Positions 15,682 to 19,482 of a DNA stretch of 64,000 bases are shown in pieces. This DNA comes from a virus: the IMG/VR virus record IMGVR_UViG_3300043420_000984, positions 1 through 64,000 of that record. The stretch is one strand, 5' to 3'. Positions within the stretch are counted from its first letter, which is position 1; each line of letters opens with the position of its first letter. The translations under genes were made by a program, and so were the position numbers. The notes beneath the pieces are model-generated. The model saw nothing but the letters and a program-made list of their open reading frames with translations, was not told the origin of the DNA and searched no databases.

Positions 15682-15708
15682 AGCAATTATAACTTTTAAT
15701 CGCTTCAT

Positions 15709-15797
15709 GGGAGTGTGATGTATGGAGCATCGTGGGTCTTATAAGCCCAAGTGGACCAGATTAGTCCCGTGTTAGGGTTCGATTCCCTACACTCCCA
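15709..15797 (+). tRNA. tRNA-Ile(UAU) with long variable arm
   Basis: gggagtg/cactccc acceptor; tgggt-CTTATAA-gccca; extra ggac..gtcc arm; taggg-TTCGATT-cccta. Confidence 0.8.
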
Positions 15798-15799
15798 TC

Positions 15800-16349: not shown

Positions 16350-16631
16350 ATGGCAGTTTTCAGATACACCATAACAAGGAAGCATGTCTTTATTGACAAT
16401 GAACCTGTTTTGATGTATTATATTGAGAACATACCATTTGCATTTGATATTCTCGAAGAAGATCAAAAACACGACAAGTGGATCTTATCTGAAGCAGCAC
16501 TCAATCAAGAATATACTATGGAAGATATCTTCCGTTATTCCGATTATTTGATTGCTGAAGAATGCCACCCAGTATTGTTTGAATTAGACCTAGTAAATCC
16601 TGAAGTATTGCCAGATGAACCAGTTTCTTGA
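16350..16631 (+). CDS. Hypothetical protein
   Basis: 93-aa acidic ORF overlapping cpeT start. Confidence 0.7.
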   Translation: MAVFRYTITRKHVFIDNEPVLMYYIENIPFAFDILEEDQKHDKWILSEAALNQEYTMEDIFRYSDYLIAEECHPVLFELDLVNPEVLPDEPVS

Positions 16632-17154
16632 ACTATTTGAAGGATCTTTTTCCAACAAGCGTCAAGCACAATCTCATCCTACTCGTTATGCTCATATCAG
16701 GGTACAACATCGGAAAATTTCCGATTATAGGTTCTATGGAGAACAATCTTACAATTACTTGCTAAATAGACCATATCGCCAGTTCGTAATTGAGGTGGTA
16801 GATGAGGGTAATGAAGTAGATGGAAACATCTACCGTCTCAAAAATTATGAGATTGAAGACCCTCAAAGGTTTGCCGAATGTAAAAATCTTGAACTCATCA
16901 CGGATGAGATCTTGACATACCGACCAGGGTGTGATAATATTATTAGGCAGACAGGACCCGAAACCTTCGAAGGTAAAAATGATACTTGCGAATGTTGGGT
17001 CATGCGTGGTACAATAAAGACCTACGTTCAAAACGAAGTTGTTCTCACACGAGACACCTATAAAGTTCTGGATCGTGGTCTCCACGCTGAAACCAATCAG
17101 AAAGTTTGGGGTTCTGATTGGGGAGCGTTTGAGTTCAAACGATTGCCTCTCTAG
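16615..17154 (+). CDS. cpeT: CpeT/CpcT-type phycobiliprotein lyase
   Basis: FSNKRQAQSHP..YAHI, YGEQ..RPYRQ, DRG..VWGSDWGAFEF. Confidence 0.9.
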   Translation: MNQFLELFEGSFSNKRQAQSHPTRYAHIRVQHRKISDYRFYGEQSYNYLLNRPYRQFVIEVVDEGNEVDGNIYRLKNYEIEDPQRFAECKNLELITDEILTYRPGCDNIIRQTGPETFEGKNDTCECWVMRGTIKTYVQNEVVLTRDTYKVLDRGLHAETNQKVWGSDWGAFEFKRLPL

Positions 17155-17216
17155 CTCAGTGGTAGAGCACCCGCCTTGTAAGCGGGCGGTCATCAGTTCA
17201 AATCTGATGGGGGGCT
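17145..17216 (+). tRNA. tRNA-Thr(UGU)
   Basis: cccgc-CTTGTAA-gcggg; AGCTCAGTGGTAGAGC; overlaps cpeT stop. Confidence 0.9.
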
Positions 17217-17277
17217 CTTGAAAGGTCTGGAAATGTTCGGATCTTTCATACGGATCGGGATCATCATATCCGATCCA

Positions 17278-17373
17278 CTCATCACTTGCGCTGGAAAGAT
17301 AAACCAGAATGCCGTGATAAGATAGAGGGTAAGCCTCTGTTATATCCTTATGAGGTATATCACGCTTACTCCA
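17278..17373 (+). ncRNA. ~95-nt pseudoknotted structured RNA, copy 1 (family not recognised)
   Basis: Homologous to 18656-18750 with compensatory changes in three helices. Confidence 0.75.
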
Positions 17374-17376
17374 TCT

Positions 17377-17450
17377 GGGGAATTAGCTCAGTTGGTAGTA
17401 GCACTTGCTTTGCAAGCAAGATGTCATCGGTTCGAGTCCGATATTCTCCA
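17377..17450 (+). tRNA. tRNA-Ala(UGC)
   Basis: G3:U70; cttgc-TTTGCAA-gcaag. Confidence 0.93.
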
Positions 17451-17473
17451 TTGAGAGGCGACGGTCTCTCAAA

Positions 17474-17657
17474 GGGTGTGACAGAATAATCCTATGCGGT
17501 CATGCACGGGATAATGTATATTAGGATAGGGGTGGTGCCCGCTGTAATACTGGGAGACCAGAGTTGCAGAATCCAATACCAAGGAATCCGAAAGTTCTAG
17601 GAAACGTTACTATCAGTGCGACCTCCTAGTTGTGAGTATGATAGAATCTCACCACCC
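17474..17657 (+). ncRNA. Probable manA RNA motif
   Basis: ~185 nt closed by gggtg/caccc, several internal hairpins, between tRNAs; size, context and recalled sequence fit the cyanophage manA motif. Confidence 0.6.
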
Positions 17658-17667
17658 ACAAACACAT

Positions 17668-17744
17668 CGCGGGATGGAACAGTCTGGTAGTTCAGCGGTC
17701 TCATAAGCCGCAGGTCGTGGGTTCAAATCCCACTCCCGCCCCCA
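17668..17744 (+). tRNA. Initiator-like tRNA-fMet(CAU), CCA encoded
   Basis: 5' CGCGGG, C1:C72 mismatch, CTCATAA loop. Confidence 0.85.
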
Positions 17745-17747
17745 TTT

Positions 17748-17815
17748 CAAAATTCACTTTTTGATTCTATAAATTCGGGAAAAATTTTTCCGCCAAAAAA
17801 TCGCCAAAAAAGTTG
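17748..17815. repeat. Phased A/T-tract intergenic element, copy 2
   Basis: Similar to 5293-5361. Confidence 0.75.
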
Positions 17816-17824
17816 AGGGCAAAA

Positions 17825-17983
17825 ATGTCACTAATTTCCCAAAAAGACAGAGAAGTAGTAATTGCTGCTCTTGAAAATTACATCATGAAGATCAGATCTG
17901 AAAATCCTCAGGATGATCAGCGTATCTCTGAAATCAATGCTTTGCTCAATTGGGTAAAACTTGAATATCAGAAAAATCTCTAA
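17825..17983 (+). CDS. Small hypothetical protein (52 aa, not in ORF track)
   Basis: MSLISQKDREVVIAALENY..LLNWVKLEY; GAGGG RBS. Confidence 0.65.
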   Translation: MSLISQKDREVVIAALENYIMKIRSENPQDDQRISEINALLNWVKLEYQKNL

Positions 17984-17989
17984 TATTAT

Positions 17990-18062
17990 TGGGGTGTAGC
18001 TCAGCGGTAGTAGCGGGAAGCTGTTAACTTCTAGGTCGCAGGTTCGATCCCTGCCACCCCAG
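17990..18062 (+). tRNA. tRNA-Asn(GUU)
   Basis: tggggtg/cacccca; gaag-CTGTTAA-cttc. Confidence 0.92.
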
Positions 18063-18247
18063 TTGCCAAAACGGCAAAAAACCCTTATAAATAAACACAC
18101 TAAAGGTCGAACATCATGTCTAACTTCAGCAAGCAAATTGAAATCTTTATGGAAAGCGATTGCCGCTATTGGCATATCGCACAGTCCCTCCTGCTTGCTA
18201 ATAAGGATAAACGTATGTAAGACGTAATCTGAAAAAGCAAAAAAGCA

Positions 18248-18282
18248 AGGGGAGGGAAACAAAAAGTTTCTCTCCCTTTTTT
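18248..18282 (+). terminator. Intrinsic terminator
   Basis: gggagggaaac-aaaaa-gtttctctccc followed by T6. Confidence 0.7.
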
Positions 18283-18289
18283 GTTGCCT

Positions 18290-18442
18290 GTGACAGTTTC
18301 CTAAGTGCCCACCCACTACCACCCAGAGATTGAAGCGGTGGTATATTACATAAGTCGGTGGGGGAACGAGACCCCAAACTGCCAAGTCCACTTTCGGAAC
18401 TGGCACAAACCACTTGCCCCGCAACGGGTTTGGTGGTATTCT
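18290..18442 (+). promoter_or_regulatory. Tandem early promoters driving the second tRNA block
   Basis: Two GTGNCA..TGNCAC-type palindromes each ~30 nt before an extended -10 (TGgTATATT 18342, TGgTATTCT 18437). Confidence 0.6.
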
Positions 18443-18448
18443 TAAGAG

Positions 18449-18574
18449 GTGGTTGAGAGAGAAGATTAAAGGTGGTTTTCAACCACCCCGACAACTAGAA
18501 GCGGGGACATAAGGTTGATGTAAAAGTAATTACCATGCTCTCTTAACCACACACACGCACCTTGACAATCTAAA
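18449..18574 (+). promoter_or_regulatory. rrn-like leader: long stem followed by boxA-like GCACCTTGACAA
   Basis: gtggttgagagag(18449-61)/ctctcttaaccac(18538-50); gcaccttgacaatctaaa 18557-74. Confidence 0.5.
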
Positions 18575-18582
18575 CCTTTAAT

Positions 18583-18655
18583 GGGTCTGTTGCATAGCGG
18601 CTAATGCACCTGGCTTTTAACCAGTATATCGTGGGTTCGAGTCCCACCAGACCCA
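18583..18655 (+). tRNA. tRNA-Lys(UUU)
   Basis: gggtctg/cagaccc; ctgg-CTTTTAA-ccag. Confidence 0.9.
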
Positions 18656-18750
18656 TTGCTACTTGCACTTGTCGATTAAACAAGAATGCCGTAGCAAGAC
18701 AGAGGCTATGTCCCTGTTATATCCTTATGAGGTATATCACACATAGTCCA
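18656..18750 (+). ncRNA. ~95-nt pseudoknotted structured RNA, copy 2
   Basis: Fills the tRNA-Lys/tRNA-Tyr spacer; covaries with copy 1. Confidence 0.78.
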
Positions 18751-18753
18751 TAT

Positions 18754-18835
18754 GGAAGGATGTCCGAGTGGTTAATGGAAACGGTCTGTAAAACCGTCGG
18801 CTCTGCCTTCGCAGGTTCGAATCCTGCTCCTCCCA
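18754..18835 (+). tRNA. tRNA-Tyr(GUA)
   Basis: acggt-CTGTAAA-accgt; variable arm. Confidence 0.92.
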
Positions 18836-18889: not shown

Positions 18890-19276
18890 ATGTTAAACTG
18901 TAAAACCTGTGGAATAGAACTGACTGAAGATAATACCTTCAGAAGGAGTGGAAGAAAAACAAACTTCCCAGTTGGATATTATAGACATTGTAAAAAATGT
19001 TATAATGCCAGCAGGTTAGGTAGAATGGTAGAAAACAAAAAGAAGCAAGTAGAATTTTTTGGTGGAAAATGTAAATTGTGTGGGTATGATAAATGCCATA
19101 ACGCACTTGAATTCCATCATTTAGACCCTACTATCAAGGAAGAAAGTCCATCTTCCTTGAGGCAAGTCACTGATGAACTTAGATGGAAAAGTGAATTGGA
19201 GAAGTGCATTCTTCTCTGTTCTAATTGTCATCGTGAAGTTCATGCTGGATTACATCCAAATTACTTGGCCCTATAG
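18890..19276 (+). CDS. Small HNH endonuclease 2 with N-terminal Zn finger
   Basis: CKTC..CKKC, GGKCKLCGY..LEFHHLDP..KCILLCSNCHREVH; TATAAATA at 18855. Confidence 0.9.
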   Translation: MLNCKTCGIELTEDNTFRRSGRKTNFPVGYYRHCKKCYNASRLGRMVENKKKQVEFFGGKCKLCGYDKCHNALEFHHLDPTIKEESPSSLRQVTDELRWKSELEKCILLCSNCHREVHAGLHPNYLAL

Positions 19277-19339: not shown

Positions 19340-19482
19340 TTGGGAGTCAGTATTCTAACTCTCACGCATTCTTCAGAGGTTGCCAGTTTGCAGAAGAATG
19401 TTGTAGTAATAACTGGAATTGGGGAGGGATTTCCGCCCGATGATTTTAAATCATCACTTTGCGGGATACCCCCTCCCATCAA

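Follow-up and report, generated by a model that had tools for sequence, protein, structure and literature searches.

Two modular hairpin RNA families beside tRNA genes in the arrays of T4-like cyanophages

Two covarying RNA modules in a tRNA array

The stretch of DNA analyzed here, hereafter the window, comprises 64,000 nucleotides (nt), positions 1 to 64,000 of the 91-kb IMG/VR virus record IMGVR_UViG_3300043420_000984, and ARAGORN places 20 tRNA genes in it, all on the + strand, between 15708 and 20488. Its closest DNA matches are Synechococcus myoviruses, e.g., S-PM2 and S-RIM8, and because of these matches, the 20 tRNAs, and a manA RNA, we assign the window, judging from its sequence content, to a T4-like cyanophage (Kyanoviridae type), whose tRNA array it contains. 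Within this array a first-pass annotation had described a duplicated element at 17278-17373 and 18656-18750, reading each copy as one pseudoknotted RNA of about 95 nt placed just before a tRNA. The duplication is genuine, and the copies align at 84% identity; as had been noted, each ends in CCA (17371-17373 and 18748-18750), followed by three bases and then by tRNA-Ala (17377) or tRNA-Tyr (18754), while the second copy starts at the base right after the discriminator of tRNA-Lys (18655). Our analysis shows that each 95-nt copy consists of two independent RNA modules, A and B, which represent two uncatalogued families of T4-like cyanophages (Kyanoviridae).

The division into modules emerged from the homologs. 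The 23-mer TATATCCTTATGAGGTATATCAC is present exactly twice in the window (0.00 occurrences expected from shuffles) and was recovered as an exact match in at least 119 IMG/VR contigs; when these were lined up, the part common to them was only the 3' ~55 nt, here called module B or the core. The pattern of module A, the preceding ~42 nt, was found in 96 further contigs. The pooled set, drawn from IMG/VR contigs and five cultured Kyanoviridae, consists of 228 module B cores, spread over 214 loci, together with 106 copies of module A, and its alignments cover 94 distinct cores (A4, including a second scan for a C-to-U variant and the five isolates) and 44 distinct module A homologs (A5). The proposal of a single 95-nt RNA does not survive this comparison: module A lies directly upstream of only 37 of the 228 cores (16%), and 47 of 95 module A copies have no core behind them, among them one in the cultured phage S-SZBM1, where it is flanked by tRNA-Ala and tRNA-Asn.

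Module B is described by a nested hairpin model with an 8-bp base helix, a CNC bulge, a U:A pair and a G:C/U pair, a U.U mismatch, and a 6-bp upper stem. Standard pairs account for 99.9% of pair cells across the 94 cores, compensatory changes occur in 8 of 16 pairs, the covariation score was reached by 0 of 500 shuffles, and sliding the partner strand by one column lowered pairing to 30 to 35%. A change from U:A to C:G at 25:39 and another from A:U to G:C at 26:38 pin the upper stem to its register. Minimum free energy (MFE) folding returned this hairpin, nested as in the model, for both window copies and in three unrelated contexts, with z-scores of -1.9 to -3.8. Because of G.U pairs at 10:52, 27:37, and 21:43 the fold is strand-specific, and the covariance model R1 gives ~14 bits on the reverse strand versus ~90 bits on the forward strand (87 bits for copy 1 and 80.3 bits for copy 2). 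Variation is limited to the base stem, the upper stem, and the terminal loop, with the bulge region, the pairs adjacent to it, and the GAG and CCAUC flanks constant. The loop reads CUUAUGA in most cores, CUGAUGA in S-CREM1 and S-SZBM1, and CCUGA or CUCGA elsewhere, and it has 5 nt in S-RIM8 and S-RIM32. The 23-mer, put forward at first as invariant, is so in both copies and in the contigs that share it, but elsewhere in the family it has a terminal loop of variable length and sequence and a covarying stem.

The paired segments gggtaagc/gcttactc, which become ggctatgt/acatagtc in the second copy, had been interpreted as a pseudoknot. The pairing is real, with compensatory changes in 6 of its 8 pairs among the 94 distinct cores, but it forms the base helix of the nested hairpin, and the nested model covers 99.9% of pair cells, so that no pseudoknot is borne out. 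The AGAG/CNCU stem that would turn it into an H-type pseudoknot was rejected: its helix 4-8/18-22 shows no two-sided change, pair 8:18 fails to form in 48 of 58 sequences, and the stem competes with the nested pairs 20:44 and 21:43. Additional pairings of GAU with AUC (P0), GUGAUA with UAUCAC, and the loop AUG with the tail CAU have no compensating change where the 5' flank differs.

Module A is modeled as an outer helix of 7 bp, followed inward by two G:C pairs and an inner hairpin of 4 bp. Among the 44 homologs, 98.8% of pair cells are paired and 7 of 13 pairs have changed on both sides; 6 of these 7 pairs belong to the outer helix, and again 0 of 500 shuffles reached the covariation score. 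The outer helix takes forms as different as UUGCUAC/GUAGCAA, GGGUAG/CUACCC, CCAUCA/UGAUGG, and UAGAUUG/CAAUCU, whereas the interior GC-G-CUGG-AAAGAUAAA-CCAG-AAU-GC is almost invariant, 23 of these bases having been fixed by the scan pattern. Both stem changes reported earlier between the window copies hold up in this set: the replacement of atcac/gtgat by gctac/gtagc falls in the outer helix, where 6 of 7 pairs are compensated, and that of ctgg/ccag by cttg/caag corresponds to a G:C to U:A change seen among the homologs. The claim of a structured RNA with real covariation is thereby sustained, with compensating changes that recur across the homologs of both modules.

The element had not been recognized as a member of any RNA family, and this remains so after searches with Rfam 15 at the gathering score over the window, at E ≤ 10 over 1.7 kb, and at E ≤ 10 with each copy alone (~100 nt): no family matches either module, and the searches at E ≤ 10 returned only microRNA and small nucleolar RNA matches at chance level. 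There is therefore no detectable similarity to the models for hepatitis delta virus (HDV), hammerhead, hairpin, twister, pistol, and hatchet ribozymes or for the manA, wcaG, and abiF RNAs. The core sequence string was not found in the literature either, where a catalogue of ~10,000 viral structured RNAs (PMC10690425) could still list it.

Table 1. Positions in the window of the module copies and of the neighboring RNA genes
Feature	Position	Strand	Description
tRNA-Thr(UGU)	17145..17217	+	61 nt 5' of module A copy 1; ARAGORN, Rfam
Module A copy 1	17279..17320	+	Outer helix 17279-17285 / 17314-17320; UUGC..AAUGCC internal loop; hairpin CUGG-AAAGAUAAA-CCAG; alignment A5, MFE fold agrees
Module B copy 1	17321..17375	+	5' GAUAGAG; base helix 17327-17334 / 17364-17371; CUC bulge; U:A, G:C; U.U mismatch; upper stem 17341-17346 / 17354-17359; loop CUUAUGA; 3' CCAUC
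tRNA-Ala(UGC)	17377..17450	+	5' end (RNase P site) would define the 3' end of copy 1; ARAGORN, Rfam
manA RNA (RF01745)	17452..17662	+	Rfam, 100.9 bits versus gathering score of 55.2
tRNA-Lys(UUU)	18583..18655	+	3' processing would define the 5' end of copy 2; ARAGORN, Rfam
Module A copy 2	18656..18697	+	Helix UUGCUAC/GUAGCAA; inner hairpin CUUG-UCGAUUAAA-CAAG; alignment A5, MFE fold
Module B copy 2	18698..18752	+	Base helix GGCUAUGU/ACAUAGUC; interior as in copy 1; ends CCAUA, one more base, then tRNA-Tyr
tRNA-Tyr(GUA)	18754..18835	+	5' end would define the 3' end of copy 2; ARAGORN, Rfam

Genomic context of the modules

The proximity to tRNA genes that was seen at the two window copies extends to the family as a whole, in both adjacency and orientation. 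A tRNA on the same strand begins no more than 8 nt downstream of 145 of the 228 cores (64%) and one ends 6 to 60 nt upstream of 173, while a nearby tRNA on the opposite strand was found for 0 of 228. Between the core and the next tRNA there are 0 to 8 nt, and the downstream position is taken by no fewer than nine different tRNA species. A general tRNA leader motif was considered for the terminal CCAUC and rejected, as it occurs in only 96 of 1053 tRNA leaders, approximately the number that have a core upstream.

On the 5' side the partners of the core are of several kinds. Among 87 unique contexts, 30 have a promoter, 34 a short hairpin followed by AUAUAUAAAAGU (an AU-rich box), and 12 module A. 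The promoter is sigma70-like, with a near-consensus TTGACA-N17-TAcTAT and a hairpin in its spacer, and transcription would start near GAUAGAG. No promoter-like site was found in the window directly 5' of either copy, and both copies are therefore taken to be internal to tRNA-containing transcripts; a strong terminator-like hairpin at 18247-18279 (14 pairs and a T run), which follows a 34-amino-acid (aa) open reading frame (ORF), divides two transcription units.

Cores that are not followed directly by a tRNA precede a conserved but unmatched RNA of ~90 nt, an abiF RNA, a second promoter and tRNA, or an ORF of 63 to 67 aa with a ribosome-binding site. At homologue locus L061 the order is promoter, core, second promoter, tRNA, and the core there is therefore not simply the leader of the next gene. 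In S-CREM1 a protein gene precedes the core, which lies after its stop codon and ahead of a solitary tRNA-Ala. The ~90-nt RNA often stands right after the core and runs from GUAGGAAGUGCAA to CCCUCCUAC with a long-range closing helix, as at homologue locus L017:1806-1890; it also occurs at L001, L005, L009, L016, L033, L039, L044, L065, L073, L074, L081, L095, and L103-L105. The window does not contain it, and Rfam at E ≤ 1 returned no match for it.

The syntenic spacer of S-PM2 lacks the element: the orthologous tRNA-Lys and tRNA-Tyr are separated there by 38 nt consisting of a hairpin and an AU-rich stretch, and judged by this comparison evolution can dispense with the element. The records of the five isolates have nothing annotated at the element. 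In S-RIM8 (KX349286.1, 19436-19486; locus L121) the locus tags skip from _026 (tRNA-Thr) to _028 (tRNA-Ala) exactly at the core, which may reflect a feature once called at this spot and later dropped from the record. A strict 27-nt core pattern run against ~185,000 bacterial and archaeal species genomes matched only two tiny contigs from metagenome-assembled genomes (MAGs), JAURIR010000201.1 (L128) and JALRAI010000177.1 (L129), of 576 and 802 bp, where the core scores 80 to 89 bits with the covariance model. They are binned as Chitinophagales and Flavobacteriaceae and are probably misbinned cyanophage fragments.

The array holds other features as well. The manA RNA exactly occupies the gap between tRNA-Ala and tRNA-Met, so a catalogued RNA is found in the same kind of slot as the modules, and since it lies flush between tRNAs, tRNA processing would free it too. 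Between 18290 and 18582 is a GC-rich, apparently structured region of ~290 nt, which ends in CCTTGACAATC right before tRNA-Lys and has Rfam matches at chance level only. A 143-nt spacer 5' of tRNA-Glu (19340-19482) ends in CCCAUCAA, resembling the CCAUC end of module B, with a body that differs, and may be another spacer RNA. The tRNA-Ile with anticodon UAU (15708-15799; 92 nt by ARAGORN) has an unusually long variable region. An ORF of the CpeT/CpcT family (16615-17154, +; Pfam PF06206, 1e-37) overlaps the first bases of tRNA-Thr (17145). Directly 3' of tRNA-Tyr is an ORF with an HNH-type motif (18890-19276, +; ..EFHHLDP....CSNCH..), which may be an array homing endonuclease comparable to SegB in T4; neither it nor the S-CREM1 "RNA binding protein" fragment has a Pfam match at 1e-3.

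Possible functions and competing explanations

Our favored reading is that the modules are tRNA-array hairpins, freed by tRNA nucleases, that bind a conserved protein as decoys or regulators, and we put it forward tentatively, conscious that it could well be wrong. In both modules a freely covarying outer helix would serve to present an invariant interior, which in module A comprises the UUGC/AAUGCC loop and the AAAGAUAAA hairpin and in module B the CNC bulge, the U.U mismatch, the neighboring pairs, and the GAG and CCAUC flanks. The modules would be transcribed within polycistronic tRNA-array RNA; RNase P would cut 1 to 3 nt 3' of CCAUC, and the upstream cleavage would fall to RNase Z or RNase E, acting either on the 3' end of the preceding tRNA or within the AU-rich linker. 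For copy 2 the predicted product is an RNA of ~98 nt (18656-18753). Because all copies are co-oriented with tRNAs, the tRNA-processing nucleases would probably free the modules, as expected from established knowledge of tRNA maturation. The freed hairpins would then bind their protein through the invariant interiors and act in trans. We prefer protein binding because abiF RNA, an antitoxin-type RNA proposed to work in this manner and with bacterial relatives that partner a toxin protein, is present in the same arrays, and by this analogy a protein-binding decoy is also the most attractive of the three candidates named in the first-pass annotation, the others being a ribozyme for tRNA processing and a tRNA mimic. 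A more specific version, in which module B, and perhaps module A, would be a trans-acting decoy that sequesters a conserved host defense or RNA-processing protein, with the arrays serving as a delivery platform for a series of RNA-based counter-defense modules (abiF RNA, A, B, and others) trimmed by the enzymes of tRNA maturation, seems unlikely.

Several points weigh against this interpretation. Close mimicry of a host antitoxin would lead one to expect a bacterial counterpart of the core, and the strict pattern found none in the ~185,000 genomes beyond the two tiny MAG contigs. Some of the module B columns that appear invariant were fixed by the search patterns themselves, and the near-invariance inside module A has to be read with the bases fixed by its scan pattern in mind. 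Further, the usual site of the core, after a promoter or AU-rich box and before a tRNA, RNA, or ORF, fits a cis-acting leader equally well.

This last point leads to the main rival, a cis-acting processing and stability cassette, which we consider a serious if rather doubtful alternative. The core would then be either a specific nuclease recognition site, of which the RNase III sites of phage T7 are an example, or a protective hairpin, and would set the boundaries and half-lives of tRNA, noncoding RNA, and small-ORF segments, capping the 3' end of the upstream RNA after the RNase P cut or, where it follows a promoter, the 5' end of the primary transcript. The stereotyped position, with 64% of cores ending within 8 nt of a tRNA 5' end, fits such a boundary element just as well as it fits a freed hairpin; cores that precede an RNA module or the 63- to 67-aa ORF with its ribosome-binding site, the S-CREM1 core between stop codon and lone tRNA-Ala, the one third of cores that follow the TTGACA-N17-TAcTAT promoter, and the shape of the core itself, an irregular hairpin of ~17 bp with a small internal loop, are all in its favor. 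However, ~30 invariant bases are not needed for a protective hairpin, the tRNA follows at anything from 0 to 8 nt, a fresh promoter behind the core at L061, L094, and L013 means that the core is not the leader of the next gene there, and syntenic S-PM2 matures tRNA-Lys and tRNA-Tyr with a 38-nt spacer and no element. We regard a DNA-level cassette, a new ribozyme, and a tRNA mimic as less likely. As a mobile or recombination cassette, or a target of the HNH homing endonucleases of the arrays, the element would carry its hairpin only secondarily; its mosaic distribution, its absence from the S-PM2 spacer, its many different neighbors, and the precedent of PeSL cassettes in T4-type phages (PMC2839356, PMC4122927) are compatible with this. 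So is the HNH-motif ORF within 1.5 kb of 38 of 122 cores, including the one in the window and mostly 250 to 800 nt downstream on the same strand, an association that is biased because the loci were chosen for containing the core. Against it, variation falls in compensatory pairs around a fixed interior, which argues for selection on an RNA fold rather than recent spread, and the fold is strand-specific by its G.U pairs, with 228 of 228 cores co-oriented with tRNAs, whereas mobile elements insert both ways; we therefore hold a DNA-level element to be quite improbable.

The idea of a self-cleaving ribozyme of a new class that would aid maturation of the adjacent tRNA draws on the small size of the element, its invariant bulge and flanks, its position next to tRNA genes, the CUGAUGA in the loop of S-CREM1 and S-SZBM1, and the precedent of tRNA-adjacent theta (HDV-like) ribozymes in phages (PMC10879173). 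Yet no Rfam ribozyme family matched at E ≤ 10 even when ~100 nt were searched alone, the nested hairpin accounts for all covariation and contains no nested double pseudoknot, and 36% of cores have no tRNA start within 8 nt downstream, the spacing ranging from 0 to 8 nt in the others. An HDV-like or theta architecture (P1-P2-P3-P3'-P1'-P4-P4'-P2') was rejected because covariation in module B backs only the order P2-stem-stem'-P2'; hand mapping of A, B, and A+B onto P1-P4 failed on strand order and on the 6-nt AAUGCC insert. In module A, 6 nt separate the inner hairpin from the strand that closes the module, and a P2 would find no partner on the 3' side. In hammerhead ribozymes G5 is essential, and the majority loop CUUAUGA lacks that G5; CUGAUGA is a minority variant, there is no GAAA strand, and Rfam gave no hammerhead match. 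Hairpin ribozymes have a loop A (N*GUC opposite AGAA) and a loop B (AGAAACA opposite UAUAUUAC) between four helices, and GGUAUAUUAC and AGUC..CUGUU look like strings of that ribozyme, a likeness that covariation contradicts: the look-alikes UAUAUYAC and AGUC..CUGUU are Watson-Crick paired (14:48, 16:46, 20:44, 23-26:38-41), neither an AGAA nor an AGAAACA strand is present, and Rfam gave no hairpin-ribozyme match. With this non-HDV topology and variable tRNA spacing, a processing ribozyme is unsupported, and we consider it very improbable. Lower still is the likelihood of a tRNA or anticodon-arm mimic, to which we accord scarcely any weight. An acceptor-like 8-bp helix followed by CCA, a 7-nt loop C-U-UAU-G-A like that of phage tRNA-Ile(UAU), with the majority CUUAUGA one position off the tRNA-Ile(UAU) loop CUUAUAA (~15740), and stem and connector lengths reminiscent of armless mitochondrial tRNAs speak for a mimic. 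On the other hand, ARAGORN in bacterial, relaxed, and mitochondrial modes finds no tRNA on the transcribed (+) strand of the element, the helix runs straight into CCA without a discriminator base, a conserved UC comes after the CCA, and D and T arms are missing. Since the loop varies from 5 to 7 nt, with the variants CUGAUGA, CCUGA, and CUCGA, the resemblance to the tRNA-Ile(UAU) anticodon loop falls, and the mimic is largely refuted.

Relation to known small RNAs and cassettes of phages

T4-like cyanophages rank with the most abundant viruses that infect the main primary producers of the ocean, and their tRNA arrays are usually taken merely as codon-usage aids. The modules add two RNA families, both absent from Rfam, to an array cargo that includes the manA, wcaG, and abiF RNAs, and this strengthens the view of these arrays as scaffolds for the expression and processing of small RNAs. 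Both modules are short, each has one obvious candidate functional site in its invariant interior, and they are carried by the culturable phages S-RIM8, S-CREM1, S-SZBM1, and S-SRM01.

With a conserved fold, a location on the same strand as the tRNAs, and a position flush with them, the modules have the attributes of small RNAs of phage tRNA clusters. In T4, rnaC and rnaD are likewise small stable RNAs in a tRNA cluster, co-oriented with the tRNAs and flush with one of them (tRNA-Arg), and are annotated only as "small, stable RNA" (species 1 and species 2) with no further function (NC_000866). They are longer, at 119 to 139 nt versus the 42- and 55-nt hairpins described here, and rnaC has a tRNA-like GGTTCGAATCC arm. 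In the T4 tRNA region, model R1 with filters off scored no higher than 13.4 bits, and this on the strand that does not carry the tRNA and rnaC/rnaD genes, so there is no homology. Theta ribozymes are small structured RNAs found immediately next to tRNA genes in tailed phages, with the cleavage site against the tRNA (PMC10879173); they possess the HDV nested double pseudoknot, whereas module B is a plain nested hairpin at a variable distance from tRNA 5' ends. PeSL promoter/stem-loop cassettes resemble the core in that one of its common 5' partners is a promoter with a spacer hairpin and in their mosaic distribution among related genomes, but PeSL is a DNA cassette of promoter and terminator, while the core is an RNA fold with compensatory changes that occurs with or without a promoter.

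The closest parallels come from the cyanophage arrays themselves. The manA and wcaG RNAs (RF01745, RF01761) are, like the modules, conserved structured RNAs of T4-like cyanophage tRNA arrays to which no function is assigned; unlike them, they are larger (98 to 192 model positions), multi-stemmed, and pseudoknotted, and their models show no similarity to either module. The abiF RNA (RF03085) is, like the modules, a short hairpin RNA that stands flush between tRNAs in the same arrays. The Rfam abiF model matches neither module, and the abiF RNA has bacterial relatives in Rfam, whereas the core has only the two tiny MAG contigs. Strings from the 3' side of the abiF RNA and from its trailer (ACAGAGGGG followed by UCACUG) recur in the 5' half of module B (ACAGAGGG..GUCACUG). 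An abiF RNA lies flush in the tRNA array at 9 of 14 related loci (L021, L001, L006, L009, L012, L016, L017, L058, and L065), and at L021:11169-11205 it is placed between the core and tRNA-Gly, abutting the core. S-CREM1, which has the core, also carries an abiF RNA (PMC9964418, Table 4).

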